Shown here: in pieces, positions 2,378-59,048 of the stretch
How positions within the stretch are numbered: the stretch's first letter is position 1
Layout of the letters: each line of letters opens with the position of its first letter
The notes under the pieces: generated by a model
Seen by the model: the letters and a program-made list of their open reading frames with translations, nothing else
What the model was told of the DNA's origin: nothing
Databases searched by the model: none
Program-made: the position numbers and the translations under genes
Origin: Candidatus Ryanbacteria bacterium RIFCSPLOWO2_12_FULL_44_26
GTDB taxonomy: Bacteria; Patescibacteriota; Minisyncoccia; Ryanbacterales; HO2-45-13
Length of the DNA: 64,000 nt
Direction of reading: 5' to 3'
NCBI GenBank assembly: GCA_001821765.1
Contig: MHOA01000001.1
Span: 88,294-152,293, forward strand

Positions 2378-2902
2378 GTGATTCTCCAGAAAGATTTTTA
2401 TAATCGTGATACTACAGCAGTTGCGAAAGAACTGCTTGGAAAATATTTGGTGCGAAAAATAGGAAACCGCATACTCGCATATTCAATTATAGAAACGGAA
2501 GCGTATGTCGGACCAAACGATAAAGCATGTCATGCGTCCAGGGGTTTTACAAAACGAACCGCAGTCATGTTCGGCCCTCCGGGGATCGCCTACATATATC
2601 TTATCTACGGCATGTACTATTGTTTAAACATTGTAACTCGTGAATCAGGATATCCGGCGGCAGTGCTTATTCGCGCTCTTGATCATCCTGAAATGACGGG
2701 ACCCGGACGGCTCACAAAATTTCTCAACATAACCGGTTCCCATAATGGAGCGGACATGACAAAACGGTATACACTTTGGATTGAAAACAGGGGAGTGATT
2801 GTCAAAAAAAATGCTATTACGGCAACACCGCGGATCGGAGTGGGTTATGCCGGCGAGTGGAGTAAAAAACCGTTTCGGTATATAATAAAAAACAGTGATT
2901 GA
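2378..2902 (+). CDS. mpg: DNA-3-methyladenine glycosylase (Mpg/AAG family)
   Basis: GTG start; ETEAYVGPNDKACHASRG..MFGPPG..YIYLIYGMYYCLN family signature. Confidence 0.8.
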   Translation: MILQKDFYNRDTTAVAKELLGKYLVRKIGNRILAYSIIETEAYVGPNDKACHASRGFTKRTAVMFGPPGIAYIYLIYGMYYCLNIVTRESGYPAAVLIRALDHPEMTGPGRLTKFLNITGSHNGADMTKRYTLWIENRGVIVKKNAITATPRIGVGYAGEWSKKPFRYIIKNSD

Positions 2903-3941: not shown

Positions 3942-3984
3942 TAGTATTTTACTGCCAATATAGTATTATCGTTTATACGTTTAT

Positions 3985-4293
3985 ATGATTGCTATCATCG
4001 AAACGGGAGGAAAACAATACATTATCAAGAGCGGCGAAAAGCTGGATGTTGAAAAGCTGCCTCAAAAGGAAGGGGACAGTATAACATTTGATAAAGTGCT
4101 TCTGACTGCAACCGACAAGGAAGTGAAAATCGGCAGGCCCTATGTTGACGGCGCTTTGGTTACGGTAACGTTGATCGGGCACGGCAAAGGAAAAAAAATC
4201 CGCATCATGCGGTATCACTCAAAAACAAGGCACAGGAGAAGAAAAGGGCACCGCCAGCTTTATAGCCGCATTGAGGTGGCAAACATAAAATGA
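3985..4293 (+). CDS. rplU: 50S ribosomal protein L21
   Basis: MIAIIETGGKQY.. N-terminus and basic C-terminus typical of bL21. Confidence 0.9.
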   Translation: MIAIIETGGKQYIIKSGEKLDVEKLPQKEGDSITFDKVLLTATDKEVKIGRPYVDGALVTVTLIGHGKGKKIRIMRYHSKTRHRRRKGHRQLYSRIEVANIK

Positions 4294-4300
4294 TTATACG

Positions 4301-4332
4301 GAAAGCGTCCAGATAATGACGCTCCGTTTTTA
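4301..4332. terminator. probable bidirectional terminator between rplU and recR
   Basis: AGCGTC-cagataat-GACGCT hairpin followed by T-run. Confidence 0.4.
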
Positions 4333-4962
4333 TTTCCTGTTTTTAAGAGCAAACTTAATTGTTTCAGGATCTGCATATTCTAATTCTGAACCCGTTGAGA
4401 GGCCTCTTCCAAGCCTTTGGAATTGAATTTCGTTTTTTTTGATAAACGGCTCCAAAACACGCTCAAGATACAACGCCGTTGCGTCTCCTTCAGGCGTTGC
4501 TGAAACGGCCACAATAATTTCTATGGGTTTTTTAAGATTTCTGTTATTCATGAGCGTTTCTATGCGTTCATACAGCCCTTTCACGCGTTTATGTACCAAC
4601 CCTTCCTTTTTCTCATCTAAAATAAGCCCTCCAAGCAGATGATAGGCTCCTTGGAAATATCCTGATCGTTCGATATTTTCTAAATCCTGATCTTTTTCAA
4701 TAACGAGAATAGGGTGTCCTGATTGGAGGTTTTTACAAGACGTACATATGTCAATATCTTGTGTTTTTTCTATGGCACGTCCGCACACATTACACCGCTG
4801 GACGCTTTTTTTAAGATCAGCAAGAACTGCGGCCAGACTATCAGTTGATTCTTTATCCCAATCAAGCAACGCATAGGCGAAACGCGCAGCTTGTCTTGGA
4901 CCAATGCCCGGCAAACGGACAAGATATCCAATTAATTTTTGGATGTTCAGCGGAGTTGCCAT
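4330..4962 (-). CDS. recR: recombination protein RecR
   Basis: HhH motif LPGIGPRQAARFAYALL, C4 zinc finger CNVCGR..CTSC, Toprim domain. Confidence 0.9.
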   Translation of the reverse strand: MATPLNIQKLIGYLVRLPGIGPRQAARFAYALLDWDKESTDSLAAVLADLKKSVQRCNVCGRAIEKTQDIDICTSCKNLQSGHPILVIEKDQDLENIERSGYFQGAYHLLGGLILDEKKEGLVHKRVKGLYERIETLMNNRNLKKPIEIIVAVSATPEGDATALYLERVLEPFIKKNEIQFQRLGRGLSTGSELEYADPETIKFALKNRK

Positions 4963-4967
4963 ACGAA

Positions 4968-6359
4968 TTACATAGTAACCGGTTCTTCCACTGCTTGATC
5001 AACATCGGGCGGTTCTGCGATGTCTCCCATGTATTTTTCTACCGGGGAGAATTTGACTTTTTTTTCGTTAAAGTAAAGGTACACTCTTCCGGTGGGACCG
5101 TTTCGGTGTTTTTCAATCAGGATTTCTGCGATATTTTCTCTGGCTCCTTCACGTTTGGCTTTATCTTCCCGGTAAATAAATATTACAACATCGGCATCTT
5201 GTTCTATTGAACCGGATTCTCTTAAGTCTGAAAGGCGAGGGATAGGAGGATGTCGCTGTTCCACAAGCCGTGAAAGCTGTGAAATCGCAAGCACCGGCAC
5301 ATCAAGTTCTTTTGCGAGGGATTTTAAAGATCGGGAAAACTCGCTTACTTCCTGAACCCGATTTTCTGTTCTTTTTCTTCCTTCCATAAGCTGCAGATAA
5401 TCCACAACGATGAGCCCCAAACCATGCTCTGCCTTTAGTCTTCTTGACATAGCACGTATTTCTAAAATGGTATTTGACGCCGCATCATCAATAAAAATAG
5501 GCGCTTTGGAAAGCTTCTCTAAAGCGTCTCGAATGCGGGTGAAATCGTCTGAATCTTCTCTTAGTCTTCCTGTTCTAAGGTTCCATAGATCAACATTTGA
5601 TTCAGCGGCAATGAAACGATCTATAAGCTGCTGGACAGACATTTCCAAACTGAAGATTCCAACAGTAATGTTGTTATGCACCGCAACATTTCTGGCTATA
5701 TCAAGCGCAAGTGCCGTTTTTCCTAAAGAAGGCCTGGCGGCGAGCACAATAAGATCAGACGGCTGAAGACCGGAAAGAATATTATCTAACTCCGGGAAGC
5801 CCGTTGGAACACCGCGTATTGCTCCTTTACCGCGGTGCAGAAAATCAATTCTCTCCCAAGCTTCGGTCAGCGCATCTTTCACTTTGATAAACCTTTGTTT
5901 CAACGAACTTTGCGAGATTTTAAATATCTTTTTTTCCGCATCGTCCAGCAACGCTTCTACATCTCCTTCCTCCTGATACCCCAGATTATTGATTTGATGT
6001 GAAGCCTCAATAAGATCTCTAAGTACTTTTTTCTTTTTCACAATATCTGCATAATGGTGGATATGTGAAGCAGTTGCCACGCTATTTACCAGAGACGTTA
6101 GATAACTTGCATCTCCGACATCTTTGAGCAGGTTTTGTTCTTTGAGGCGTCCGGAAACAGAAACAATATCAACGGGACTGTTCTTATTGAAGAGATCGAG
6201 CATTGCGCCATAGATGATGCCGTGATCTTTGCGGTAGAAATCTTCCGGACGCAACATATCAGCCACTCGTTCAATGATGTCAGCGGCAATCATAATTGAA
6301 CCGAGAACAGCCATTTCCGCTTCCGCATTGTGCGGAGGCACTTTTATAAGCTCGGTCAT
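4968..6359 (-). CDS. dnaB: replicative DNA helicase DnaB
   Basis: N-terminal DnaB domain (NAEAEMAVLGSIMI), Walker A GKTALALD, RecA-like core. Confidence 0.9.
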   Translation of the reverse strand: MTELIKVPPHNAEAEMAVLGSIMIAADIIERVADMLRPEDFYRKDHGIIYGAMLDLFNKNSPVDIVSVSGRLKEQNLLKDVGDASYLTSLVNSVATASHIHHYADIVKKKKVLRDLIEASHQINNLGYQEEGDVEALLDDAEKKIFKISQSSLKQRFIKVKDALTEAWERIDFLHRGKGAIRGVPTGFPELDNILSGLQPSDLIVLAARPSLGKTALALDIARNVAVHNNITVGIFSLEMSVQQLIDRFIAAESNVDLWNLRTGRLREDSDDFTRIRDALEKLSKAPIFIDDAASNTILEIRAMSRRLKAEHGLGLIVVDYLQLMEGRKRTENRVQEVSEFSRSLKSLAKELDVPVLAISQLSRLVEQRHPPIPRLSDLRESGSIEQDADVVIFIYREDKAKREGARENIAEILIEKHRNGPTGRVYLYFNEKKVKFSPVEKYMGDIAEPPDVDQAVEEPVTM

Positions 6360-6415
6360 GATTTTATGCTATCCGATCGCAACGGGTGTTTCAAGGGCGT
6401 TGGAGGAAAAGCATT

Positions 6416-7831
6416 TTATATCTTGTGGAAACGCTTGACGTTTTCAATCGTTATTGAACCAGCGCGGATATGGTATCCTTTTTTTGTGTCACGTAAGCTC
6501 CAGCCCATTTTTTCGATGACGCTGCGTATTTTGTCTGCTTCTTTCCATTGTTTCCGTTTTCTTAGTGATTCCCTTTCTTTTGCAAGTTCCCGTATCTTTT
6601 TTGGTATGCGGAGTGTTTTTTTGCTTTCTTTATATAGCGAAAGACCGAATACATGATCCGCCCAAAGCAGCAGATCTTTTGTGGCTTCATTGCGATGTAT
6701 CAGTTTCCAAATATGCGCAAGCGCCTTGGGTGTGTGCAGATTGTTTTCAAGGCAGCTTTGGATTTTTTGCTTGTGAATGTGCTGGGCCTTTCCGGCCGGC
6801 GCCTCTTTTAGATATGCAATGAGCCCTAATCGCGCGGCTCGCGCCGCGTCCAACGCTTCCAAGTGAAACAATAATGGGCTTCTCCAGTGTACAGTCAGTG
6901 TTAAATATCTAAAATCAAGAGGACTATATCCATACGCAGTGAGATCTTTTAGCAGCACGGCGTTTCCTTTTGATTTTCCCATTCGGATTTTATTTTTTTC
7001 TTTCAGCATTAAAAGGTTTGGATGGAGCCAGTAACGAACAAATTGTTTTCCGGTGGCAGCTTCACTTTGTGCAATTTCGTTTGTATGATGAATCGGCACA
7101 TGATCGATGCCGCCAATGTGTATATCAAAGCTGTCTCCGAGATATTTCATGCTCATAGCAGAACATTCAATATGCCAACCGGGAAAACCTGTTCCCCATG
7201 GCGATTTCCATTCCATTTGCCTTTTCCTGCCGCTTTCCAAGGATGGAGAAAATTTCCACAACGCAAAATCATTGATTGATTTTTTATCTTTTATACTTAC
7301 TCGCGCTCCCGCTTTAACACCTTTCACATTCATTCCGGCAAGTATGCCATATTTTTTGAATGTCCTTGTATTAAAATAAATGCCATCGTTTGTCTTATAC
7401 GTATATCCTTTTTGTTGAAGCTGTTTAATAAGTGTTATTTGTTCTTTAATATGCTCGCTTGCCCGCGGGAATGCGTCTGGCTGAAGGATATTTAATGCTT
7501 TTATATCTTTTTTAAATTCCTGTTCGTAGAATCTGGCGATTGTATGCGCAGATTTGTTTTTTTTGCGGGCTTCCTGCTCAATTTTGTCTTCCCCCGTGTC
7601 AGCGTCTGAAGTGAGATGTCCCACATCGGTTATGTTTATCACCTGTTTAACGCGATATTCCATTATAAGAAGCGTTCGTTTTACTAAATCCTGAAAAATA
7701 TATGTCCGGAGGTTTCCTAAATGAGAATGTTGATATACGGTTGGGCCGCAAGTGTACATTCCCACTGTTCTTTTTTTTAGAGATTTGAACGCTTCTATTT
7801 TTTTTGTCAGGGTGTTATAGAAACGTAGCAT
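6416..7831 (-). CDS. cysS: cysteinyl-tRNA synthetase
   Basis: MYTCGPTVY, HLGNLRTY, KMGKSKGN class I motifs. Confidence 0.9.
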   Translation of the reverse strand: MLRFYNTLTKKIEAFKSLKKRTVGMYTCGPTVYQHSHLGNLRTYIFQDLVKRTLLIMEYRVKQVINITDVGHLTSDADTGEDKIEQEARKKNKSAHTIARFYEQEFKKDIKALNILQPDAFPRASEHIKEQITLIKQLQQKGYTYKTNDGIYFNTRTFKKYGILAGMNVKGVKAGARVSIKDKKSINDFALWKFSPSLESGRKRQMEWKSPWGTGFPGWHIECSAMSMKYLGDSFDIHIGGIDHVPIHHTNEIAQSEAATGKQFVRYWLHPNLLMLKEKNKIRMGKSKGNAVLLKDLTAYGYSPLDFRYLTLTVHWRSPLLFHLEALDAARAARLGLIAYLKEAPAGKAQHIHKQKIQSCLENNLHTPKALAHIWKLIHRNEATKDLLLWADHVFGLSLYKESKKTLRIPKKIRELAKERESLRKRKQWKEADKIRSVIEKMGWSLRDTKKGYHIRAGSITIENVKRFHKI

Positions 7832-12578: not shown

Positions 12579-14843
12579 CTACAGCGTCTCCCGTCTAAGG
12601 AATCTGAATATTTTTGCCAGTTCCGGAAGCCAAGGTCGGTCAAAGTGCGCAAGGAGCGCGGGAAGCAGGATCAAATCTCCAAAAAGAGCATACAGCATTG
12701 TTACACTAAGGAGCCGGGAAAATGTGTGGTATGGAATCAGGTCTGCCATATTCATTGCGAGAAATCCGGCGACAACGGCGACGGTGCTGGTCACAATCGG
12801 GAATGCGAGCTCTTGGATGGTTTTTTTTACTGCTTGTTCAGGAAGAAAACCGCTCTTTCTGTGATGCGTATATTGTGCGAGAAAATGTCCCGTATCATCC
12901 ACAACAAGACCAAGCGCAATGGCGCTGACGATGGAACTGCCAATATCAAGATCAATCTCAAATATTCCAAGCAGAGCCAAGCTTCCGAGCACCGGCAGGG
13001 CGTTTACGACAATGGCAAAAGCGGCGAGTTTTATAGACCGAGTCAGCACTACGAACGTGACAAACACCAGCATTATTCCGGTCGCAAGTGACCGCATATT
13101 TTCTTTGGCAATTTGAATGCCTGCACGGAAGAATTGTGCGACTCTGCCTGTAAGAACAGCGTCAATCCTGTTTTCTTGCGCGAAACTTTTTACAGCTCTA
13201 TCAAATTTGCTGAAATCGTCCGAATTTCGAAAAGGCGTTTGGAGAAGCACTGTCAGGCTTGTTCGATCGTGGCTGATGTACGGTTCAATGTCGTCATCTT
13301 CAAATAACAGGAGGAACTGCGATACCCCCTCTTTCTTTTTCGGAAATTCTTCAGGCATATCCTCGTCGGCGCTGAAAGCCAGGCTCAATTGCCGCAATTG
13401 ATCGTAGAAGTTTGAAGCCCTCAACCCCGGGATGAGTATTTTTTGTTTTTCAACAAATGCATGGACAGTATTCTGTACTTTTGGCTCAACAGCGATTTCT
13501 TGGTGGATATTATCAAACACCGTAAGCGGGATAACGTATGTTCCAAAAATTTCTTTTACCCGATCAAACTGTAAATGGACAGGATTGTTTTCCTTAAGGT
13601 AATCAATCGGTCCGTAGTTTACCTTGAGTTTTCCAATCCCCAATGCGCTAACGGCAGTCAAGATGGCAATCAGCACTATCGTTTGTCGGCCAGTAAGCAT
13701 AAACAAATGCCGATTTCCGTCATTCGGTATCTTGTCTTCATCATCCTTTTTCCTAAACGCAAGCACAGGAAAGGTGAGTGTTATAGTGACAAAAAGACAT
13801 GCCAGAATCCCAAATGTCCCCAGAAATCCGAATTGCCTGACAGCGGGAATGCCGCTTATTCCGGTGGTGCCAAAGCCGATCATAGTTGTAATCACAGCAA
13901 ACGCAAACGGCCGTAGTGCAGATGCCGGAAGCCATCCAAAAAACATGTTTCCGCCGCGCTTCGCATAGCCGAACGCATGAATCGTAAATGCAGCCCCCAG
14001 AGGAATCAGCAGGTTGACCATAAGAACATTGACCGGATTTTGCGGGATGCCAACGATAACCATCAGCGCAAAAGTAAGCGCCGTTGTTGAAATTCCCGTA
14101 GCTCCTGCGAGGATGCCGACCAATACAGATCTTGTCTGTATCCAAACAACCGCCATCATGATAAACACCACGATCGGCAGTATCATTGAAGCGCGGTCTG
14201 TTGCGCGGGAAAGTTCAGCGCTGACATTCAGCTCGCCGCTTTGAAGCAAATCTCCGCCGTTACAGTCTGAAGAAACTCCATCACAAAACCCTCTGCGAAA
14301 GGCACTGCGGTGTTTTTCCAAAACAGCCTTTACTCCGTCACTTACTGTCAGCGCGTCAGTCTTTTTTTCAGCAACTATATATATCGCAACCGCTGTTGCT
14401 TCAGCGTTAATGAGCAGGTTTTTGTATGGGACATACGCAACAGCCAGCTCACAGCGCTTTTGAGCATCAGCGGAAACGTCTGGAAAATTCTTTACCTCAA
14501 CGGTATTGCCTCTACCGGCAATATAGTTAGCGTTTGTAAGAGAGATGACCCTGTCAACGCCCGACAAACGCTCAAGATCGTCTGAAAGGAGCGTAAGACG
14601 CTTCCATCCTTCTTCTGTGCAAAGCGCATTTCCGGTCGCGACAACGATATTTCCAGCGTCGCTCGGAAATTCCTCAAGATATCTCTCGTAGTACCGCGCA
14701 CTTACATCACCCCTCGGAAGAAGGGCAGTGTAGTCGTCATCGGTGGTGAGATGTTTGAGAAATGGTACACTGACCGTAAATACCAACGTGAAAAACGCAA
14801 TGGCGCTTTTGCGGCCAAAGGCACGCATCATCCATTCCTTCAT
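12579..14843 (-). CDS. MMPL/RND-superfamily membrane transporter (lipid/exporter type)
   Basis: 754 aa, two 6-TM bundles each preceded by a large loop, typical MMPL/SSD architecture. Confidence 0.6.
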   Translation of the reverse strand: MKEWMMRAFGRKSAIAFFTLVFTVSVPFLKHLTTDDDYTALLPRGDVSARYYERYLEEFPSDAGNIVVATGNALCTEEGWKRLTLLSDDLERLSGVDRVISLTNANYIAGRGNTVEVKNFPDVSADAQKRCELAVAYVPYKNLLINAEATAVAIYIVAEKKTDALTVSDGVKAVLEKHRSAFRRGFCDGVSSDCNGGDLLQSGELNVSAELSRATDRASMILPIVVFIMMAVVWIQTRSVLVGILAGATGISTTALTFALMVIVGIPQNPVNVLMVNLLIPLGAAFTIHAFGYAKRGGNMFFGWLPASALRPFAFAVITTMIGFGTTGISGIPAVRQFGFLGTFGILACLFVTITLTFPVLAFRKKDDEDKIPNDGNRHLFMLTGRQTIVLIAILTAVSALGIGKLKVNYGPIDYLKENNPVHLQFDRVKEIFGTYVIPLTVFDNIHQEIAVEPKVQNTVHAFVEKQKILIPGLRASNFYDQLRQLSLAFSADEDMPEEFPKKKEGVSQFLLLFEDDDIEPYISHDRTSLTVLLQTPFRNSDDFSKFDRAVKSFAQENRIDAVLTGRVAQFFRAGIQIAKENMRSLATGIMLVFVTFVVLTRSIKLAAFAIVVNALPVLGSLALLGIFEIDLDIGSSIVSAIALGLVVDDTGHFLAQYTHHRKSGFLPEQAVKKTIQELAFPIVTSTVAVVAGFLAMNMADLIPYHTFSRLLSVTMLYALFGDLILLPALLAHFDRPWLPELAKIFRFLRRETL

Positions 14844-14952
14844 GTTCCTTCTCCTTTGTCAAAGAGAAACGTAAATCTATGTTGAAAGTACTACAAATAT
14901 ATCGTTTTGTCAATTAAATGAGTGGTATATAATTGTTATAAGAGCGTTTTTC

Positions 14953-15004
<52 letters not shown>

Positions 15005-15011
15005 TTAGTAG

Positions 15012-15695
15012 ATGGCATTATTATCGTATAAATTTTTTAGAAATTTTCTTGCAGTCGTTGCTTTTTATCTAAGCTATATTCTTTTGCGTCCGTTTTTTAA
15101 AATTATTTTCTCTGTAAAAGTTACTTTTCCGGAAAATTTTAGGGAAAAAATACAATTTCCGGTCATTTTTGTTACAAATCACAAGACCCATTTTGACCCT
15201 TGGATTTTTGCGGCAATGATGCCTTTTGTCTATCTTCGCGGAATCGTGCCGATCCGCTATATGGCGACTACTCGGTTCAAACACTTTTTTATGAAATTTC
15301 TTTACAGGATTGGAGTTATTAAAACTATATATTTTATTTATAACGTGCTTACTATTACTGATAAAGAAACTATTGAAGAAAAACTGACGCCATACATTAA
15401 AGCTCTTCAAAGTAACCAGACGGTCATGCTTTTCCCGGAAGGGGGATTGTTCCGTCATGATGCGGTAGGAGAATTCAAAAGAGGTGCGGTATATCTTCAT
15501 GCAATGAGCGGTATGCCAATTTTGCCGGCTTCTATTCGATTTTCCGGAAATGGCTTAAGAAAAAAATGCCATGTTCATTTTGGAAATCCCCTTATGATCC
15601 CTATTAATTTAAAAAGCGGGGGAGACGCCGTGCAAGCCGATGCATTAAAACATCTTCGGGAAATCATTGTTGGGTTGTATGAATATGCGGAATAA
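15012..15695 (+). CDS. lysophospholipid acyltransferase (PlsC/LPLAT family)
   Basis: HX4D motif NHKTHFD, FPEGG motif, N-terminal TM. Confidence 0.75.
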   Translation: MALLSYKFFRNFLAVVAFYLSYILLRPFFKIIFSVKVTFPENFREKIQFPVIFVTNHKTHFDPWIFAAMMPFVYLRGIVPIRYMATTRFKHFFMKFLYRIGVIKTIYFIYNVLTITDKETIEEKLTPYIKALQSNQTVMLFPEGGLFRHDAVGEFKRGAVYLHAMSGMPILPASIRFSGNGLRKKCHVHFGNPLMIPINLKSGGDAVQADALKHLREIIVGLYEYAE

Positions 15696-15769
15696 AAGCT
15701 TTTTGCAGTATATGATTTTTTAATAAAATCTATGGTAAAATAAGTGGTGTATGAGATTAGACTTGAAAA

Positions 15770-16474
15770 ATGCTCAACACAACTTTTTGGAAAAAGTATT
15801 TTGAGGTTTATGATTTACTTAATGAACTGATACCGTACCGGGAGTTATTAGACAAGATTTGTGAAGAGTTGGATGTAAAAAATGGTGATTTGGTTTTGGA
15901 TGCTGGTGCCGGAACAGGCAATCTTGGAGTTGAAATAGAAAAAAGAGACGGAAGAGTTGTTGGATTCGATTTGTCACCAGAAGGGTTGGGAATACATAAA
16001 AAGAAAACTCCATTTGCTGAACTGGTAATAGGAGATTTGTCTCGCCCACTACCTTTTGAGAATAATTATTTTGATAAAATTTGCTCAAATAATACGATTT
16101 ATACAATTCCCAGAAAATACAGAGAAGATATATTTAGAGAATTTTACCGTGTACTAAAACCGAGAGGGAAGGTGGTTGTTTCTAATATTACCCTAGGATT
16201 TAACCCATTCAAGATATATTTAACCCATATAAAACAGAGTTTTAGAAAAATTGGCATAATGAACACCATGTTAAAGGTTATTAAATTGGCGATTCCAACT
16301 ATTAAAATATTTTATTATAATCACCTAATTCAGAAAGAAGACAGAAGCGGACGTTATGATTTCTTTGAAGTTGATGAACAAAAGGATTTATTGAGAAAAA
16401 CAGGTTTCACAAATATTTCTGAAAATAAAAGTGTCTATGTCGGACAAGCTGTTCTCAACACAGCAATTAAATAG
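15770..16474 (+). CDS. class I SAM-dependent methyltransferase
   Basis: Motif I VLDAGAGTGNLG, motif post-I, LKPRGKVVV. Confidence 0.75.
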   Translation: MLNTTFWKKYFEVYDLLNELIPYRELLDKICEELDVKNGDLVLDAGAGTGNLGVEIEKRDGRVVGFDLSPEGLGIHKKKTPFAELVIGDLSRPLPFENNYFDKICSNNTIYTIPRKYREDIFREFYRVLKPRGKVVVSNITLGFNPFKIYLTHIKQSFRKIGIMNTMLKVIKLAIPTIKIFYYNHLIQKEDRSGRYDFFEVDEQKDLLRKTGFTNISENKSVYVGQAVLNTAIK

Positions 16475-16511
16475 TAAAAATCTAGTAGGTTAAAAAATAT
16501 AAGAACCTTTT

Positions 16512-17144
16512 ATGTGGAAACTAGTATTCTATACTAAAATATTGCTTCTCAAAATTTGGCTCTCATTTAAGGGCTATGAGTTATTTGTTCGTGACTATAA
16601 CTCGACACCTTCGGAAGTGTTTATTTTTAGAAAAAAAATATACCAAGTAGAAAACTATTTTGGAGATAATATTAAAATTGAAGATGTATGGAAAGATAAA
16701 TATGACGAGAAAAGTTTTCACGTTTATGTTAAAAATAAAAATTCAGTTATCGGCGCTTCTCGGCTAACATACATAGCGCCATTACCAATCACAGATGTGT
16801 TTAATGTTCACTCACTTAATAATAGTGTTGGTGAATTTTCTCGTTTGGTAATTGAAACGGATTTACGAGGCAACAGAAGGTTAATTCTTATAGCTTTGAC
16901 TTACGGGATGCTAAAAGCTAGTAGAAAAATTGGTATTAGACAGTGGGTAGCATTTATGCCATTAAAATTTAAAAATTCCCTTGAAAGGCTCGGAGTGAAA
17001 TTTTCTGAAATATCCCAACAAGCGTTGACAAATTATCATATCCAAAATCGTTCCATCTTATCTGGCTACTTTAAAAATGATATCAGACCGTATATCATAA
17101 AGACAAAATCTCTAAAAAGAGGTTTTGCGGGAATATTTAAGTAA
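16512..17144 (+). CDS. GNAT-fold N-acyltransferase of the autoinducer-synthase / N-acyl amino acid synthase superfamily (putative)
   Basis: About 210 aa; GEFSRLVIE...RGNRRL block resembling the E-x-SR-F/L-AV core of LuxI/N-acyl amino acid synthase-like enzymes. Confidence 0.4.
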   Translation: MWKLVFYTKILLLKIWLSFKGYELFVRDYNSTPSEVFIFRKKIYQVENYFGDNIKIEDVWKDKYDEKSFHVYVKNKNSVIGASRLTYIAPLPITDVFNVHSLNNSVGEFSRLVIETDLRGNRRLILIALTYGMLKASRKIGIRQWVAFMPLKFKNSLERLGVKFSEISQQALTNYHIQNRSILSGYFKNDIRPYIIKTKSLKRGFAGIFK

Positions 17145-17170
17145 ATTTATATCTTAAAAACACTAGCTGG

Positions 17171-18829
17171 ATGTTAAGTGTTGCCAACAATATTTTACTG
17201 ACTGTTGTTTTCATCAACTTTATTCTTGGTTTCGCGGTTCTCAGAAGAAACTGGAAAAATCCCACTAACCTTGCTTATTTACTGCTTACGTTTTCCATAA
17301 TATTATGGGCTATTTCTCTTTTCTTTTTTAGGGCAGCAAATAGCATTGATAATATTCTCATTATTGGGAAAATTGTCTACACAATCCCTCCATTCATTCC
17401 ATTCTTTTTTCTTCTGTTTGTTTATTCACTAGTTGGATCAAAAATTTCTTTACTAAAACTAGCAGTCTTTCTCTTACTTCCAACCATACTTATTTCTGTT
17501 ATTAGTCTGGAAACTTCGTTAGTAATAGCTGGCGCCGTGATAGAAAGAGGGATTAACCAGCTGCACTTTGGTTCTTTTTACTTTTTATATCTTTCTTATC
17601 TTACGCTTTATTTTTTAATAGGATTTATAACTTTATTCAAACGGTATCGTACTGAAAACAATCTGATTAAAAAAGCTCAATATAGACTTATACTCATTGG
17701 AGTAACTACTGCAATAGTGGTAGGGCTTTTTGCTAATGGATATTTCCTAACAACTTTTGCGTTTCAATATAACTGGGTTGGGCCAATAGGGACGGTATTT
17801 ATGGTAACACTCTTCGCTTACGCTATTGTCCAATATCGTTTATTTAACATTAAAGTAATTTCTGTTCAGATATTTGGCGGAGCTTTAGCTGGCGTACTTT
17901 TAGTAAAGTTATTATCCTCTCAAGGTCCCAGCGATTTTACCTTTAATAGTATAATATTTATTGGAGCAGTTGTTATAACTATTCTTCTAATAAGAGGAGT
18001 ACTCAAAGAAGTGGAAACAAGAGAAAAAATACAGGAACTGGCGGGGAAACTAGAAGCAGCAAATGCAGAACTTCGGCAACTGGATAAAGCAAAGTCAGAA
18101 TTTATTGATATTGCTTCTCATCAATTGCGCACTCCGCTCTCTATTATGAAAGGGTACTTGTCAATGCTGAATGAAGGTACGTTTGGGAAGTTGTCTATAA
18201 AATTGAAAGATCCGTTAAATAAAATCTATATTTCAAACGAGCGCCTTATTACGCTTGTCGCGGATTTGCTTGATCTTTCGCGAATTGAGCGAAAAAAACT
18301 GCAATATTCATTTGAACATATGCAAGTTTCCAATGTTATTCACTCAATTGTGATAGATTTTAAACAAACAGCCAGACAAAAAGGTCTGGCACTGCATTGG
18401 AGAAAACCAAAAAAACTGCCGCTTGTCTATGCCGACCCGCAAAAGCTGCGTCAAGTGTTTTTAAATATTATTGACAATGCAGTAAAGTACACAAACAAGG
18501 GATCAATTGATATTTCATTAAAACAAGACGGTGATTTTATTGTTTTTTCCGCAAAAGACACCGGTATTGGGTTAACAGAGAAAGAAGCACAGCGGCTTTT
18601 TCAGAAATTCGTTCGGGGAGAAGAAATGAAACGGGCAAAAACACAGGGCATGGGGCTTGGGATGTATGTGGCAAAATTGATTATTCAGGATCACCGGGGA
18701 GCAATTTGGGCGGAATCTCCCGGAAAGGGAAAGGGGAGTATCTTTTTCGTAAGACTGCCAATAGCAAAATCCGAAAACAAAGAAGACGAAAATGAAAAAC
18801 AAATGGAAGAATTTATTAAGAATATCTAA
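17171..18829 (+). CDS. sensor histidine kinase with N-terminal multi-TM (about 7 helices) sensor domain
   Basis: H-box ASHQLRTPL, N-box IIDNAVKYT, G-boxes DTGIGL / GMGLGM; no response regulator adjacent. Confidence 0.85.
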   Translation: MLSVANNILLTVVFINFILGFAVLRRNWKNPTNLAYLLLTFSIILWAISLFFFRAANSIDNILIIGKIVYTIPPFIPFFFLLFVYSLVGSKISLLKLAVFLLLPTILISVISLETSLVIAGAVIERGINQLHFGSFYFLYLSYLTLYFLIGFITLFKRYRTENNLIKKAQYRLILIGVTTAIVVGLFANGYFLTTFAFQYNWVGPIGTVFMVTLFAYAIVQYRLFNIKVISVQIFGGALAGVLLVKLLSSQGPSDFTFNSIIFIGAVVITILLIRGVLKEVETREKIQELAGKLEAANAELRQLDKAKSEFIDIASHQLRTPLSIMKGYLSMLNEGTFGKLSIKLKDPLNKIYISNERLITLVADLLDLSRIERKKLQYSFEHMQVSNVIHSIVIDFKQTARQKGLALHWRKPKKLPLVYADPQKLRQVFLNIIDNAVKYTNKGSIDISLKQDGDFIVFSAKDTGIGLTEKEAQRLFQKFVRGEEMKRAKTQGMGLGMYVAKLIIQDHRGAIWAESPGKGKGSIFFVRLPIAKSENKEDENEKQMEEFIKNI

Positions 18830-40353: not shown

Positions 40354-41257
40354 TTATTGAACATATGTCAGCCATTTTTTATATGCCTTCCTCTCCCCTT
40401 TTACAATTTCTTCAAAATATGTTTTTACTCTTAACGTAACCGGACCGATGTTACCGTTATTGATAATTTTTTTGTCTATTTTTCCAACCGGCGTCACCTC
40501 CGCAGCAGTGCCCGTAAGAAAACATTCGTCGGCTTTATAGCAATCCTTCAGGTGAAACTTTTTTTCTCTTGCGCGTATTTTTAAATCTTTTGCAATTTGT
40601 ATAACGGCATTTCTTGTAATACCCGGCAAAATGTTGCCGAGGGGCGGAGTGCATAAGACGCCGTTTCGCACTATAAAAATGTTTTCTCCGGAACCTTCCG
40701 CCACAAAACCTTGTTGGGTAAGCAGCAATGCCTCATCATAACCGGCTTTTCTCGCTTCAAGGTGGGCTAAAACAGAATTGACATACGGTCCGCTTATTTT
40801 CGCGTTTGGGTTAAAAGACATCGGACTAAAACGCCTTATGTTTGCTGTTTTTATCTTTACTATCTGTTTCTTTAAATACTTTCCCCATGGAAGCACTATG
40901 ACTGCCAGATGCACTTTTGTTTTTTTTAGGATGAACTCCAAGAGCGCTTTTACCATAGAACATAATGGGTCTTATGTAGCCGGTTTGCAGTTTTTGGGCT
41001 TTTACGGTATCAATAACAGCTTTTTTGATACTTGAAGCTATCCATCTTGGTTTCATCCCAAAGGAATGGGCAGAATATATAAGACGCTTTATATGTTCGT
41101 CCAGCCGAAACACCGCGCTTCCGCTTTTGGTTTTATAAAATCTGATTCCTTCAAATGCCGCCGTCCCGTAGTGTAACGAATGGCTAAGCAAACTGATTCT
41201 TGCTTTGCTTTCTGGTCTTAATGTTCCATCAATCCAGATCATAAATATGTATTGCAA
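40354..41257 (-). pseudogene. ilvE: branched-chain amino acid aminotransferase split by a single-base frameshift in a homopolymer
   Basis: ORF 40826-41257 = BCAT N-terminus (GTAAFEGIRFY..RLDEHIKRL); ORF 40354-40956 = BCAT C-terminus (EGSGENIF..ILPGITR..TGTAAEV); frames differ by 1 across an A8 run (plus-strand T8 at 40920-40927); removing one base restores ..GVHPKKTKVHLAVIVLPWGKYL.. colinear with E. coli IlvE. Confidence 0.7.
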
Positions 41258-41276: not shown

Positions 41277-41996
41277 TTACGAACAGGTCGTCTTGCCCGC
41301 AAAAGGGGCTCCAAGCGCGGTATCGGCGCTGTCCACATCCCCATCGCCATCCCAGTCAGCATCAATACATTGAGGAAAAGCAGTCAAATCTGCACCCTCA
41401 CATGTTGTACGAAAATCGTTTAACTCTTGAACAGTAATATTTCCATCATGATCATTATTCTTATCCATCATAAGGTTTTGGTGAGTAAACACCCAGTACG
41501 GCCGCAAGGGGTTTTCCAATACTCCCCGCAGTAAATATCCCCTGCCGTCTTTACAGGGTTTATACATGTAATAGTGTGTTTTAGCGCCAGCGCCTGATGG
41601 ATCGGTCGGTAACTTGCTGATATATCCAGCATCAACCAACGGTTGCAAGTTGCTTGAAGAATACCAATAATCTCCGGGGGACGGGCCTGCGCTACTCCCC
41701 GGCCCTAAAGGACCAATGTCGCAATGGTCACCGACAGTAGATGATCGAAACCAGCCGAGGCTTGAGTCACAGTAATAATAGGGTTGGGTAAAGTTGCTGA
41801 AGGGGTAGTTATTTTGATCATTGTGATAAAATTCCAGTGCTTTTCGTATCTCTCTAAGATCTAAAATTCTTCTTGTGTCTCTTGCTTTTGACCGGAAACC
41901 GCTTACCGAAGGCGTAATAATGCTCGCCAACAAGGCAAGGATCGTTATAACAATTAACAATTCCAACAATGTAAATCCGTCCTCCTTTTTTTGCAT
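41277..41996 (-). CDS. type IV pilin-like protein (prepilin N-terminus) with C-terminal EF-hand/dockerin-like Ca-binding module
   Basis: MQKKEDG^FTLLELLIVITILA class III signal; C-terminus DKNNDHDGNITVQELNDF...DADWDGDGDVDSADTALGAPFAGKTTCS. Confidence 0.75.
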   Translation of the reverse strand: MQKKEDGFTLLELLIVITILALLASIITPSVSGFRSKARDTRRILDLREIRKALEFYHNDQNNYPFSNFTQPYYYCDSSLGWFRSSTVGDHCDIGPLGPGSSAGPSPGDYWYSSSNLQPLVDAGYISKLPTDPSGAGAKTHYYMYKPCKDGRGYLLRGVLENPLRPYWVFTHQNLMMDKNNDHDGNITVQELNDFRTTCEGADLTAFPQCIDADWDGDGDVDSADTALGAPFAGKTTCS

Positions 41997-42221
41997 TAAA
42001 TAAAATGAAGAAACAGCAAACCTATCTCTTTCACGCTAAAACCGGCCATGACAAGATAAGACATTGCCGAATAAGATGGGTATCCATATTTTAAGTATAT
42101 TCTTTACATAGCCCTTAAGCGAATGAAACCGCACTTCACATTGCTTATGAGAAGACAATATGTTGACGCACACAGGAATTGAGCCCGTGTTTCTGTTATC
42201 CGTCCATTACATTGAATCCTG

Positions 42222-42293
42222 TGACCCCTAGGGGAGTCGAACCCCTGTTTCATCCGTGAGAGGGATGCGTCCTAACCACTAGACGAAAGGGCC
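42222..42293 (-). tRNA. tRNA-Glu (anticodon CUC)
   Basis: Minus-strand cloverleaf GGCCCUU-UC-GUCU..AGGAC-G-CAUCC-CUCUCAC-GGAUG..AGGGG-UUCGACU-CCCCU-AGGGGUC-A. Confidence 0.85.
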
Positions 42294-42444: not shown

Positions 42445-43191
42445 TTACGAACATGTTGCCTTACCCGCAAAAGGGGCTCCAAGCGCGGTATCGGCAATGT
42501 CCACATCCCCATCACCGTCCCAGTCCGCATGAATGCATTCAGGGAAAGTGGATAAATTTGCCCCCTCACATGTTTTATAAGCAGTTAACTCTCCAGCAGT
42601 AATCGTTCCGTTATTATCCTTATCCATCATAAGGTTTTGGTGAGTAAACACCCAGTGCGGCCGTAAGGGATTTTCCAATACTCCCCGCAGTAAATATCCC
42701 CTGCCGTCTTTGCAGGGTTTATACATGTAATAGTGTGTTTTAGCGCCAGCGCCTGATGGATCGGTCGGTAACCTGCTGATATGTCCATTAACAACCAACG
42801 GTTGCAGGTTGCTCGTTGAATACCAATAATCGCCGGGGACTGGTTGGCCAGGATTAGACCCCGGCCCTAAAGGACCGATATAGCAATGATCAGAGGGAGA
42901 ATTTGATTGAAACCAGCCAAGGCTTGAGTCACAGTAACCATTTGGTGCAGTAAAGTTGCTGAAGGGGTAGCCACCAACGTCCACATTGTAAATTTCCAAA
43001 GCACGCCGTATTTGCATAAGGTCTGTAATTCTTCTGGCATTGCGCCCTTCCTGAAACCTTTTCAGCGGATTTAACGTGACAAAGATCATCCCTGCGATAA
43101 TGGCAGTAATTGAAATCACTATTAACACCTCAAGAAGCGTAAAGCCTTTTTTGCCGATAAAAAGGCGAAACCTATCAATGAATCTAAGCAT
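42445..43191 (-). CDS. type IV pilin-like protein, paralog of 41277-41996
   Basis: MLRFIDRFRLFIGKKG^FTLLEVLIV; canonical EF-hand loop DKDNNGTITAGE plus DADWDGDGDVDIADTALGAPFAGKATCS; start chosen at internal Met to abut murF stop. Confidence 0.75.
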   Translation of the reverse strand: MLRFIDRFRLFIGKKGFTLLEVLIVISITAIIAGMIFVTLNPLKRFQEGRNARRITDLMQIRRALEIYNVDVGGYPFSNFTAPNGYCDSSLGWFQSNSPSDHCYIGPLGPGSNPGQPVPGDYWYSTSNLQPLVVNGHISRLPTDPSGAGAKTHYYMYKPCKDGRGYLLRGVLENPLRPHWVFTHQNLMMDKDNNGTITAGELTAYKTCEGANLSTFPECIHADWDGDGDVDIADTALGAPFAGKATCS

Positions 43192-44500
43192 GAATGTGTA
43201 GGTTCTTTTTTTTCCAATAAGACTCCTGACGCACAAGAAGCGTTTCTGCTTGTGTATGATCCGCCATAACCGCTTCAGTTATTTTTTCCATCCTCATCGC
43301 CTGTGAACCCTTAATGAGCACAATCGTCCCCCTGCTTATCAGTTCATGGAGTTTTTTCCCGGCCTCGTTGGAATTTGAAAATTCAAAAATCTTTTCTTTA
43401 TCCATTCCCGCTGTAATTGCTCCTTCCGCTATAAACTTGGCGCGCGTTCCCACAACAAGCAATAAAGAACAAACAGTGCCCGCTTTTACGCCAATTGCGC
43501 GATGTTCCTGCACGGTGTATTTACCTATCTCCAACATATCCCCAAGCACCGCTATTTTTGCGTGAGTCGGCAGTTCCTCAAGCACTTCCAGAGCAGCTTT
43601 CATAGAAAGTGGCGAAGCATTATACGTGTCATCTAAAATGATGGAATGTTTCATACCCTCAATGAGTTTTAAACGTCCCGGAGACGCTTCATAATGGGAA
43701 AGCGCTTCTCCGATTTCAAGAAGATTTATGTTCCGTGAAATACCCGTAGCCGCCGCAGCCAGCGCGGCATAGACATGTTGTTTTCCTATAACTCCCGAGA
43801 TGCGTATAGGCAAAACATTTCCTTTATAGATAAGTTTGAACGTGATTCCCAAAGGAATCAAATGCCCTTCCTCTTTTTTTAAAGTAACCGCATAATTTGA
43901 AGCCTGTACGTGAGCTTTTTCATCAAAACCATACGTTAAAACAATTGCCGGCGTCTTATCCGCCAGCCCACGCACCGCAGGATCATCAAAATTGAGAATG
44001 GCATACCCATACATATCAAGCGGCCGCAAAATCTTTGATTTTTCATCAATGACTTCCTGCGGGCTCTGAAAGTATTCAACATGCACCGGAACCTCCCCAA
44101 TTGCTGTTATAACCGCAGTAGAAGGACGAATAATTTTAAGCAACATGTCAAGATTTCCGGGACGATCAATGCCCATCTCCAGCACAAATATTTCGGGATA
44201 TGGTTTAAAAGAGAACGCTCTTATCAGTCCCGCAAAAATATTTATAAACCATCCCATCGGCGAGCGAAAAGGGCTTGGGAGGCCTAACATTGCCAAAGGG
44301 ACTCCGATTTCACTATTATAGCTTTTTGGGCTTTTCGCGACTTTATAGCGGCTTTTTAATACCGTATAAATCGCCTCTTTCGCGGATGTTTTCCCCACAC
44401 TTCCGGTCACACCGATAATTGAAGGCTTAAACCGAAAAAGCACTATTTTCATTTCAATGTGCAAGATCCACAAAATAATTTTCTTAAAGATTTTTATCAT
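43184..44500 (-). CDS. murF: UDP-N-acetylmuramoyl-tripeptide--D-alanyl-D-alanine ligase
   Basis: GVTGSVGKTS P-loop, SYNSEIGVPLAML MurF hallmark. Confidence 0.8.
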   Translation of the reverse strand: MIKIFKKIILWILHIEMKIVLFRFKPSIIGVTGSVGKTSAKEAIYTVLKSRYKVAKSPKSYNSEIGVPLAMLGLPSPFRSPMGWFINIFAGLIRAFSFKPYPEIFVLEMGIDRPGNLDMLLKIIRPSTAVITAIGEVPVHVEYFQSPQEVIDEKSKILRPLDMYGYAILNFDDPAVRGLADKTPAIVLTYGFDEKAHVQASNYAVTLKKEEGHLIPLGITFKLIYKGNVLPIRISGVIGKQHVYAALAAAATGISRNINLLEIGEALSHYEASPGRLKLIEGMKHSIILDDTYNASPLSMKAALEVLEELPTHAKIAVLGDMLEIGKYTVQEHRAIGVKAGTVCSLLLVVGTRAKFIAEGAITAGMDKEKIFEFSNSNEAGKKLHELISRGTIVLIKGSQAMRMEKITEAVMADHTQAETLLVRQESYWKKKNLHIHA

Positions 44501-48170: not shown

Positions 48171-49649
48171 TCATAAGGGTTTGAGCGTTGGGAAAAGGAT
48201 TACATCACGAATGTTATGCGTATCGGTTAAAAGCTGCACCAAACGGTCTACACCCAAGCCAAAACCAGCTGTCGGCGGCATGCCGTATTCAAGTGTTTCT
48301 ATGTAATCTTCATCCATTCTGGAAACTTCTTCATCGCCCTCTTTAAACATCTGCTCTTGTTTTATAAGGCGGCTACGCTGTTCTATGGGATCGTTAATCT
48401 CGGCGTATGCATTGATCAGTTCTATGCCTCCTGCGATAAGCTGGAACCTCAACGCTGTTTCGGGAAATTGACCGGACATTTTCGCAAAGGGAGATATATC
48501 TATCGGATGGTTTGTGATAAATGTCGGCTCAATAAGATGCTTTCTTACGACTTTTTTAAAAATCTCATCTAATATCTTCCCTCTTGAATAGACTCGGTTC
48601 ATCTCAACGCCAAACTGCTTTGAAACAAGAAGAAGTTCTTCAGTATTCATATGTTCAATGTTCGGCAGAAGGGCGTATCGTTTAATCGATTCAGAAAATG
48701 TCATCGTCCGAAACGGTTTTTTAAACGTAATAGTCTTGCCGTCAAACACAATGCTGTTTTTCTTTTTCACTTCTTTTACCGCCGCCATTATCATCTTTTC
48801 CATAAGAACTTTTAATGATTCATAGTGTTCAAATGCCATATAACCCTCCAGCATAGTAAATTCCGGCGAATGAAGAACATCAATTCCCTCATTGCGAAAG
48901 CATTTCCCTATTTCATACACACGGCGAAGATTTCCAACCATAAGCCGCTTTAAATACAGCTCCGGCGCAACACGAAGATATAAATCCATATCAAGGGCAT
49001 GGTGATGAGTGGTGAACGGGCGCGCGAGGGCGCCTCCATAGAGAGGCTGAAGAATCGGCGTTTCGACTTCATAAAAGCCATTGCCATCTAAAAAATCTCT
49101 TAGCGATTTTATAATTTTTGTTCGCTCTAGAAACCTTTCACGGCTCTCTTTATTCATTAAAAGATCAAGGGCTCTTTTTCTAAACCGTTCTTCAACATTT
49201 TGAATTCCATGCCACTTTTCGGGGAGAGGCCTTACACTTTTTGCAAGCGGCCACCAATCAGTTACCAACAGCGTCTTCTCTTTTTTTTTAGTGGTAAATA
49301 ATAAACCGCTCACACCTACAAAATCTCCGATATCAATGGAGTCGGTAAAAAGTTCATGTAATCGCTCACCCAAAGTATTCTTTTTTATATAACATTGAAG
49401 ACGAACTTCGCTATCTTCAAGATCAAAAAAAACAGAACCGCCATGAGTTCGGATACTGCGAATTCTGCCGGCAATACTTAATTTTTTTTTCTGCTTTTTT
49501 AATTTCGTAAAATGGAAAAGAACCTCTCCAATATCATGAGTACGGTTTACATTAGCGGGATAAACCGAACCAAATACTTCTTTTAAGCGTGAAAGTTTCT
49601 CCAGCCTGATATTACGAATTTCTTCCAGAGACATAATAGAAACGATCAA
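48171..49649 (-). CDS. lysS: lysyl-tRNA synthetase (class II)
   Basis: YLRVAPELYLKRLMVG, FRNEGIDVLHSPEFTMLE, motif 3 GLGVDRL. Confidence 0.9.
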   Translation of the reverse strand: MIVSIMSLEEIRNIRLEKLSRLKEVFGSVYPANVNRTHDIGEVLFHFTKLKKQKKKLSIAGRIRSIRTHGGSVFFDLEDSEVRLQCYIKKNTLGERLHELFTDSIDIGDFVGVSGLLFTTKKKEKTLLVTDWWPLAKSVRPLPEKWHGIQNVEERFRKRALDLLMNKESRERFLERTKIIKSLRDFLDGNGFYEVETPILQPLYGGALARPFTTHHHALDMDLYLRVAPELYLKRLMVGNLRRVYEIGKCFRNEGIDVLHSPEFTMLEGYMAFEHYESLKVLMEKMIMAAVKEVKKKNSIVFDGKTITFKKPFRTMTFSESIKRYALLPNIEHMNTEELLLVSKQFGVEMNRVYSRGKILDEIFKKVVRKHLIEPTFITNHPIDISPFAKMSGQFPETALRFQLIAGGIELINAYAEINDPIEQRSRLIKQEQMFKEGDEEVSRMDEDYIETLEYGMPPTAGFGLGVDRLVQLLTDTHNIRDVILFPTLKPL

Positions 49650-53177: not shown

Positions 53178-54233
53178 TTATGTAAACGAGACCTCTTCAG
53201 AAGTTTCGTCAATTAAGACATTTTTTAAATGGTCAATATCTTCCAAAACAATCCCTGTCCCTCTCACAACAGCTGTTACCGGATCATCAGCAACATGTAC
53301 TGGAATTCTTGTTTCTCTCTCAAAAAGTATATCAAGTCCGCGCAGCTGCGATCCTCCTCCCACCAACACAATGCCCCTGTGTATGATATCGGCCACCAGC
53401 TCCGGCGGGGTAACTTCGATTGTTTCTTTGACTGATTTTACCAATGCATGCACTGAATTTTTAAGCGCTTCCCTGACATCCGCGTCCGTCACAAGCACTT
53501 CCCTTGGAAGGCCGGAAATGAGATCCCGTCCGCGCATTGTTGCCTCCAGTTCTTCACTCTGGGTAACCGCGGAACCAATGGCAATTTTCAGATCTTCAGC
53601 AGTTCGTTCTCCTATAACGATCTTAAATTCGTTTCTTGCAAAATCTATAATATCCGCATTCATTCGATCTCCGGCAACGCGGAGATTTTTTGAAGCAACA
53701 ATGCCGCCAAGGGATATCACCGCTATATCACTCGTACCCCCCCCAATATCAACAATCATATTGCCAACAGGTTCCTGGACTTCAAGTCTCACGCCAATTG
53801 CTGCCGCCATGGGTTCGTCGATCAAAAACACTTGCCGAGCGCCAGCTGATTTTGCCGCATCAATAACTGCTTTGCGCTCTACTTCTGTAATGCCGGACGG
53901 CACGCCAATAACAACGCGCGGACGCGCCAGCCGCCGGACATAACTGCCATGCACTTTATGTATAAAATGCATAATCATTTCCTCCGTTATTTCAAAATCA
54001 GAAATCACACCTTCTATCAGTGGCCTGTGGGCGACGATGTGTGATGGAGTTCTGCCAACCATTCGTTTTGCATCAGACCCAACCGCAACGACTTTGCCGG
54101 TTTTTTGATTCACAGCAACCACAGAAGGCTCATTAATAACAATTCCACGACCAGCAACGTATACCAGTGTATTAGCGGTCCCGAGGTCAATGCCTATGTC
54201 GTTTGAAAAAATACTAAATAACGAATTAAACAT
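53178..54233 (-). CDS. mreB: rod shape-determining protein MreB
   Basis: IGIDLGTANTLVYV, actin-fold phosphate motifs DIGGGTSD, GGGS. Confidence 0.9.
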   Translation of the reverse strand: MFNSLFSIFSNDIGIDLGTANTLVYVAGRGIVINEPSVVAVNQKTGKVVAVGSDAKRMVGRTPSHIVAHRPLIEGVISDFEITEEMIMHFIHKVHGSYVRRLARPRVVIGVPSGITEVERKAVIDAAKSAGARQVFLIDEPMAAAIGVRLEVQEPVGNMIVDIGGGTSDIAVISLGGIVASKNLRVAGDRMNADIIDFARNEFKIVIGERTAEDLKIAIGSAVTQSEELEATMRGRDLISGLPREVLVTDADVREALKNSVHALVKSVKETIEVTPPELVADIIHRGIVLVGGGSQLRGLDILFERETRIPVHVADDPVTAVVRGTGIVLEDIDHLKNVLIDETSEEVSFT

Positions 54234-58025: not shown

Positions 58026-59048
58026 CTATCGCTTCAGCAGTATGCTCTTTTTATATGCTTCCAGATGCTCAAGCGCCGTACCACAACCTTTTGCAACACA
58101 CAACAGCGGATCATTTGCAACAGACGCTGAAACGCCGGTTGAACGGTAGACAAGCTCTTCAATATTTCTAAGAAGTGAACCGCCGCCTGTCATAACAATG
58201 CTTTCTGATATAATATCAGCCGAAAGCTCCGGCGGCGTATTCTGCAAGGTGGTTTTAATAGAACGGATGATATCATCAAGACATCCCTGAATCGCTTTTA
58301 CTACTTCGTTGGTTGAAATATCAGCACTTCGCGGGAGCCCAGTGAGAATATCCCTCCCCTTAATAGTACAGACCAACTCCTCTTTTACCGGTATTGCCGA
58401 CCCAACGGCAATCTTTATTTCCTCTGCAGTGCGCTCGCCAATGGCAAGATTGAGATGTTCTTTAATATGATCGGCAATGGCCTGATCAATTTTATCACCA
58501 GCTACTTTTACAGAATTTGATGTTACAATTCCTCCAAGAGCAATGACGGCGGAATCGGTCGTGCCTCCTCCGATATCTACCACCATATACCCTCGCGGCT
58601 CGTGGATTGGAATGCCCGCCCCGATAGCTGCAAGAATCGGCTCTTTCACCACATACGCCGATTTTGCACCGGCTTTCATAGCTGCTTCCACAACCGCCCT
58701 TCTTTCGGTTGAGGTGACTCCGGCAGGAACGGATACCATGACATCGGGTTTAATAATGTTAAAGCGTCCCAGCGACTTAGATATAAAATAATTCAACATT
58801 GCTTCAGTTACCCGATAGTCCGCTATAACACCGTTTTTTAAAGGCCGATACGCAATAATGTTCTCTGGAGTGCGCCCGATCATGATTTTTGCCTCATTAC
58901 CTACCGCAAGCACCTTCTTAGACCCCACAGAAACGGCAACGACCGATGGCTCATTAATACAGACTCCTTTTTGCGGCACAAACACGAGTGTATTTGCCGT
59001 TCCAAGATCAATGCCGAGTTTTCTGATAAATAACGCCATATTATCCAC
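58026..59048 (-). CDS. MreB-family actin homolog (second paralog)
   Basis: LGIDLGTANTLVFV, DIGGGTTD, GGGS. Confidence 0.85.
   Translation of the reverse strand: MDNMALFIRKLGIDLGTANTLVFVPQKGVCINEPSVVAVSVGSKKVLAVGNEAKIMIGRTPENIIAYRPLKNGVIADYRVTEAMLNYFISKSLGRFNIIKPDVMVSVPAGVTSTERRAVVEAAMKAGAKSAYVVKEPILAAIGAGIPIHEPRGYMVVDIGGGTTDSAVIALGGIVTSNSVKVAGDKIDQAIADHIKEHLNLAIGERTAEEIKIAVGSAIPVKEELVCTIKGRDILTGLPRSADISTNEVVKAIQGCLDDIIRSIKTTLQNTPPELSADIISESIVMTGGGSLLRNIEELVYRSTGVSASVANDPLLCVAKGCGTALEHLEAYKKSILLKR

Follow-up and report, generated by a model that had tools for sequence, protein, structure and literature searches.

Coding-region homopolymers whose length sets the reading frame are well known from the phase-variable loci of Neisseria, Haemophilus and Campylobacter, and in classical contingency loci the homopolymer lies in the 5′ end of surface or restriction-modification genes. 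Frameshifted poly(A) genes have also been described in the AT-rich insect endosymbionts Buchnera and Blochmannia, where a single indel occurs in a poly(A) tract of a gene that is otherwise in frame and undegraded, and where many long A/T runs are found in coding regions (PMC3017870, PMC5574713). The endosymbiont frameshift counts and cases concern tracts of 9–12 bases (PMC3017870), and a run of nine As or Ts has served as the benchmark for slippage (PMC5009743). Such frameshifted genes were counted as intact, since slippage may restore the frame (PMC3017870, PMC5009743). However, slippage at A/T runs consists mainly of single-base insertions, deletions within runs being rare, and frame restoration by slippage was not detected in transcriptome-wide data from Buchnera (PMC5574713).

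The gene described here, a frameshifted ilvE (branched-chain amino acid aminotransferase, fold type IV), lies in a 64-kb stretch of Ryanbacteria DNA (hereafter "the window", meaning the whole stretch that was analysed). As in phase-variable loci, the length of a coding-region homopolymer sets its frame, whereas here the assemblies show no length polymorphism, the gene is metabolic and the run is ordinary for the genome. The locus shares with Buchnera and Blochmannia the single indel in a poly(A) tract, the otherwise undegraded frame and the many long A/T runs in coding regions. It differs from the endosymbiont cases in that the tract has eight bases, in that correction would take −1 or +2 nt while single insertions dominate transcriptional slippage, and in that it comes from a groundwater CPR bacterium (41.6% G+C) that lives freely or as an episymbiont. 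No related lineage that shares the frameshift was found, the protein database containing no relative between 63% and 100% identity. The locus is probably best explained as a young loss-of-function frameshift that arose when replication slipped on an A7 run and then became fixed in a clonal Ryanbacteria population.

Structure and identity of the interrupted gene

The whole frameshifted gene occupies positions 40354–41242 of the minus strand and is 889 nt long, 888 nt corresponding to 295 amino acids plus a stop codon. The extra base lies in a T8 run at exactly 40920–40927 of the plus strand, with G and A on its flanks, which is an A8 homopolymer in the mRNA sense; the plus strand around the run reads ...CACTTTTG TTTTTTTT AGGATG.... 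Two minus-strand ORFs overlap across this run. The upstream ORF (40826–41242) encodes 138 aa from an ATG at 41242, comprising IlvE residues 1–106 and a 32-residue out-of-frame tail, NKSASGSHSASMGKVFKETDSKDKNSKHKAF, before a TAG stop; an alternative TTG start at 41257 gives 143 aa (40826–41257). In the mRNA sense, its frame at the run reads CAT CCT AAA AAA AAC AAA AGT (HPKKNKS...), with 32 out-of-frame codons leading to the TAG, and the out-of-frame tail peptide of the A8 reading is NKSASGSHSASMGK. The downstream ORF (40354–40956), also on the minus strand, encodes 200 aa from an ATG at 40956 according to the ORF list and its translation. Its portion in the +1 frame (40354–40919) encodes IlvE residues 107–295, including the invariant Lys148, and gene callers begin it either at the ATG at 40956 (200 aa) or at an ATG at 40821 on the same strand (155 aa).

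The downstream frame is offset by +1 relative to the upstream frame, and the two are joined by the loss of one nucleotide or the gain of two; the A7 and A10 readings each give a continuous IlvE. Deletion of one base yields ...FYGKSALGVHPKKTKVHLAVIVLPWGKYL... at the junction (also given as ...GVHPKKTKVHLAVIVLPWGKYL...) within a 295-aa protein, and the ancestral run was presumably A7 (AAA AAA ACA, Lys-Lys-Thr). The junction peptides of a rescued product would be ...SALGVHPK / TKVHLAVIVLPWGK, and a peptide across the junction would read GVHPKK(K)TKVHLAVIVLPWGK. The first-pass annotation had described two ORFs overlapping across the T8 run and one extra base within it; our coordinates and translations agreed with this description, and the single-base deletion reproduced the repaired junction as it had been written.

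The repaired 295-aa protein matched Pfam Aminotran_4 (PF01063) over profile positions 2–223 of 223 (E = 3.6e-56) and exceeded the cut-offs of two NCBIfam IlvE equivalogs, NF005146 (356.2 bits, cut-off 279) and TIGR01122 ilvE_I (346.5 bits, cut-off 245.55). Solved branched-chain aminotransferases (BCATs; 4whx, 3u0g, 1wrv from Thermus and 1i1k/1a3g, IlvE of E. coli) aligned over residues 2–293 with E-values of 5e-75 to 1e-62, and the printed alignments to 4whx and 3u0g were gapless at the junction. Judged from these profile and structure matches, which lie far beyond chance, the repaired protein is IlvE, and the earlier assignment to the class IV branched-chain aminotransferases, colinear with IlvE, was borne out. 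A D-amino-acid transaminase, an idea that came from the position in a cell-wall cluster, was rejected: the models for that enzyme gave 118.8 against a cut-off of 277.45, whereas the IlvE equivalogs passed.

As in other members of bacterial IlvE family I (TIGR01122), the repaired protein is colinear over its full length, keeps the FEGIR and YIRP motifs together with Lys148, and retains all positions conserved in the family alignment. In contrast to those members, its frame is broken at codon 107, the gene stands alone in a CPR dcw cluster without ilv or leu neighbours, and its nearest homolog is only 59%–63% identical. An IlvE requires an uninterrupted frame, whereas the extra A splits this gene into products of 138/143 aa and 155/200 aa.

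Independent assemblies and long homopolymers

Assemblies commonly contain errors in homopolymer length, and the remainder of ilvE is intact; both would fit a true genome with A7 in which ilvE is simply an intact gene. Against such an artefact, all eight contigs that were fetched (from three JGI metagenomes, four ENA assemblies and one NCBI bin) carried A8 with 0 mismatches to the window, and the A8 contigs went back to no fewer than seven separate JGI, ENA and NCBI records of samples or assemblies. The independent assemblies equalled the window base for base over approximately 20 kb each, including 28–37 long homopolymers each, and 31 of the 32 CDS runs of at least eight bases in the window were in frame. 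Among these comparisons, loci L006–L008, L093 and L094, from different samples and assemblers, had 0 mismatches to window positions 528–64000 over about 20 kb each.

Protein records gave the same picture. An exact-protein look-up placed the N-terminal product (138 aa) on 47 contigs and its C-terminal counterpart (155 aa) on 40. The exact repaired protein (A7 from either start codon, or A10) was absent from a collection of 15 billion proteins, and no intact allele was found in the public assemblies. A protein search with the C-terminal 188 residues had the split product as its sole match at 100% identity; below it, the first match was 63% identical, with no relative in between. Exact proteins of the region occurred in the Ryanbacteria bins GCA_001819715.1 (MHNJ01000007.1) and GCA_001819895.1, in aquifer or groundwater metagenomes such as JGI 3300002105, and in ENA re-assemblies; neighbouring proteins of the region were named in four NCBI Ryanbacteria records. 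A search of a metagenome contig collection with the site pattern carrying A6–A10 gave no match, although all eight fetched loci match that pattern; the collection evidently lacks these contigs, and this search is uninformative on A7 versus A8. It is almost certain that the DNA itself carries the lesion, and an artefactual eighth base is very improbable. Thus, where the first-pass annotation had weighed decay against artefact, the uniform A8, the 40–47 contigs carrying the halves and the missing intact allele speak against the latter.

All fetched contigs were identical, and in a search for diverged strains the protein cluster variants differed only at contig ends; the sampled metagenomes share an essentially clonal population. 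A single clonal aquifer population seems to lie behind all the assemblies, more than one of which may draw on the same reads, their agreement being a replication of sequencing, not of evolution. They are, moreover, consensus assemblies, which hide minor alleles within the reads, and homopolymers of this length are established to change length at high rates in replication. Both points would be compatible with a switching site, that is, a population of A7 (on) and A8 (off) cells, by phase variation or standing polymorphism, of which the assemblies show the majority allele. We nevertheless consider such switching quite improbable, given that A8 was uniform among the fetched contigs and split products were recorded on 40–47 contigs, that no assembly gave the intact protein, that a metabolic gene is concerned, with the run at codon 105, whereas the classical loci have it at the 5′ end of surface or restriction-modification genes, and that the 31 other long CDS runs showed no length differences between assemblies.

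Those 31 other runs of at least eight bases lie in frame inside intact CDS of the 64-kb window, five of them having nine bases (21093–21101, 29287–29295, 49281–49289, 49482–49490 and 63579–63587). This amounts to approximately one run of at least eight bases per 2 kb of coding sequence, and an occasional replication-slippage event is therefore to be expected. The A8 count was 39, against 38.4 expected from dinucleotide shuffles. Since the frequency of A8 equals the dinucleotide expectation, slippery sites are abundant and the runs are unpurged, which implies many hot spots of replication and transcription slippage per genome. The coding sequence of E. coli is said to hold only one AAA_AAA_AAA (PMC5009743). 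Two C8/G8 runs, unusually long for G/C, were also present in intact CDS, at 23406–23413 in a class II aminoacyl-tRNA synthetase gene and at 53737–53744 in an mreB-like gene.

A split-gene scan, in which a +1 or −1 edit was made at every A/T run from six bases upwards and every G/C run from five upwards, detected no other gene in the window that was split at a run of at least eight bases; ilvE was the sole case. The T8 run at 43206–43213 merged two ORFs when edited and was rejected as a gene split, being the natural murF/pilin junction. The remaining merges, at runs of 6–7 bases located at adjacent gene ends and starts, are probably ordinary junctions.

Constraint on the gene and routes around the frameshift

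Constraint was assessed in an alignment with 20 homologs, in which a conserved column was one identical in at least 19 of the 20 (n = 66 columns). The repaired protein had no violations at these columns, compared with 0–5 for the intact homologs in leave-one-out comparisons, and its mean identity to outgroup IlvEs (0.51) was the maximum of the clade (other members, 0.44–0.50). The residues invariant over all 21 sequences (K148, E31-G32-I33-R34, Y89-I90-R91-P92, E182 and R210) were all kept, and Lys148, being invariant and given what is generally known of this enzyme family, is presumably the catalytic PLP-binding lysine. Beyond the single extra base, comparison of the repaired protein with the 20 homologs revealed neither a second lesion nor accelerated substitution in ilvE. 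As far as this alignment can tell, no relaxed constraint is detectable in the repaired protein. Of the decay in progress proposed earlier, a genuine frameshift remains, but it is one lesion only, in a gene whose rest is unrelaxed.

A single lesion in an otherwise unrelaxed gene would therefore be either very young or leaky. The unrelaxed sequence would fit a very recent event, and it would equally fit selection maintained by some full-length product. Because a second lesion and an excess of substitutions are both lacking, we infer that the event was very recent. Replication slippage at one of the many long A-runs would have added one A (A7 to A8) and interrupted an otherwise perfect solitary ilvE at codon 107. 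Translation would then continue for 32 codons out of frame and stop, leaving the 138-aa fragment. The enzyme would be lost or nearly lost, because this fragment is without residues 107–295, including the invariant Lys148. With the A8 allele apparently fixed in a near-clonal aquifer population, the gene would represent an evolutionarily very recent event, namely a young pseudogene.

The leaky alternative holds that RNA polymerase slippage (A8 to A7 or A10), or a +1/−2 slip of tRNA-Lys, gives a minority of full-length IlvE, by which the gene stays under selection. This would agree with an otherwise flawless gene without rate acceleration, with the continuous IlvE obtained from both corrected run lengths, and with the ability of tRNA-Lys to move from one AAA to another, in the +1 or −2 register, and still pair perfectly, and the poly(A) frameshifts of Buchnera and Blochmannia provide a precedent (PMC3017870, PMC5009743). 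However, the run of eight bases is shorter than the tracts of the cited endosymbiont cases (PMC3017870) and than the benchmark of nine (PMC5009743). The predominant one-base insertion in RNA would lead into the third frame, which stops after 10 codons, and rescue would thus need the rarer −1 or +2 event, against the dominance of insertions and the lack of frame restoration in Buchnera (PMC5574713). Furthermore, no stimulatory signal accompanied the run. The A-site codon is AAC, a sense codon, and the fold of the downstream 100 nt was not unusual (z = −1.85). A GGAG lies 8 nt upstream of the run, whereas the Shine-Dalgarno spacing at prfB-type +1 sites is 3 nt. The frameshift was also not seen in related lineages, with the reservation that no relative lies between 63% and 100% identity. 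Leaky expression is, in our view, rather unlikely. The one positive argument for a rescued product at trace level is the pristine state of the gene, which a recent origin would explain equally well. It is unlikely that the A8 frameshift is tolerated instead of inactivating, in the sense that slippage of RNA polymerase or the ribosome would supply enough full-length IlvE for purifying selection.

Programmed recoding would go further and require a conserved +1 ribosomal frameshift, or programmed transcriptional slippage, that regulates IlvE or makes two products. The A-rich slippery run at the junction and the two frames open around it are features that such a mechanism could use. In the nearest homologs, however, the loop is encoded by unrelated codons (STEGL, PTHNV) without an A-run, in a single uninterrupted ORF, and the A-run site is therefore lineage-specific and not a conserved recoding site. 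The A site offers neither a stop nor an obviously slow codon, no Shine-Dalgarno sequence stands at prfB-like spacing, no Rfam family matched at or around ilvE, and no exceptional structure was found, all of which makes programmed recoding extremely improbable. Promoter and terminator scans around ilvE revealed nothing notable. The A7 form aligned to the homologs without gaps, and TKVHLA is common to the repaired protein and one of them (P0003).

A split enzyme with cooperating halves was rejected as well. The break falls at residue 106, and the 155-aa product, which is the sole downstream product with its own ATG clear of the overlap, is without residues 107–140, including the invariant W119, Y122 and R137.

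A solitary ilvE among CPR housekeeping genes

The window is a typical CPR housekeeping stretch, with a dcw cluster (mraZ, mraW, PBPs, murF, murG, ftsW, murD, murC and an mraY-like gene) together with mreBC, aminoacyl-tRNA synthetases, ribosomal proteins and replication genes. Other branched-chain biosynthesis genes, whose presence in the genome the first-pass annotation had proposed to check, were looked for within the 64-kb window only; no ilv or leu gene was found there, and ilvE is solitary. The closest homologs of the repaired protein (54%–63% identical, 296–301 aa) are intact, and they too are solitary, without ilv or leu neighbours, in CPR-like neighbourhoods. In genomes of this kind, therefore, a solitary ilvE appears to be normal and conserved. 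Because these homologs keep the gene intact, the function of ilvE is not generally dispensable there, which weakens the earlier premise that a reduced genome would have no need of it. At one close CPR-like homolog locus (L091, positions 2711–6894), the intact solitary ilvE adjoins murC/murD-like Mur ligase genes, which may be a coincidence or a recurring linkage. Among genome contigs, no close relatives of the repaired protein were found, the only matches being IlvE genes of at most 50% identity from unrelated phyla, and a literature search on CPR bacteria and branched-chain aminotransferases returned nothing useful.

Several short IlvE-like proteins were recorded in the course of the homolog searches: P0138 (214 aa) and P0152 (233 aa), on 27–44 kb contigs of other organisms, and P0217 (189 aa), on a 1.4-kb contig. 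These may be further truncated or split ilvE genes.

Other features of the window are worth recording in their own right. Two paralogous type-IV-pilin-like genes on the minus strand (41277–41996 and 42445–43236) flank a tRNA-Glu(CTC) gene (42221–42293, minus strand); the two genes encode the GFTLLE methylation motif at the N terminus and are nearly identical in their C-terminal halves, and the group is placed in the dcw cluster between murF and the broken ilvE. Two MreB/Mbl-family genes (53178–54233 and 58026–59048), with mreC and PBP2-like genes, make up a rod-shape machinery. A gene group at 12579–18829 encodes an MMPL-type transporter, an acyltransferase, a methyltransferase and a 7TM-HisKA sensor kinase, together with a 210-aa protein that weakly matches Autoind_synth/FeeM (N-acyl synthase-like). 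This group may represent a small locus for lipids or signal molecules in a CPR genome.

The enzyme family is a textbook one, as is this way of inactivating a gene, and the finding is ordinary rather than surprising. For annotation and metabolic reconstruction, ilvE of this Ryanbacteria population should be scored as frameshifted and probably non-functional, neither as two hypothetical proteins nor as an intact transaminase. The locus also provides a clean example of a homopolymer frameshift in a short-read MAG that can be checked without reads, through independent public assemblies and an exact-protein look-up. Leaky rescue, if it took place, would be moderately interesting with regard to the fidelity of gene expression in CPR bacteria; if the frameshift were tolerated, the poly(A) rescue of endosymbionts would extend to free-living or episymbiotic Patescibacteria and to an 8-base tract. 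On the preferred reading of a young loss of function, the wider point is small: the closest CPR-like homologs keep a solitary ilvE, whereas this lineage has probably just lost the gene or at least strongly turned it down, and the unpurged A8/A9 runs within genes would be ready-made sites for such losses.
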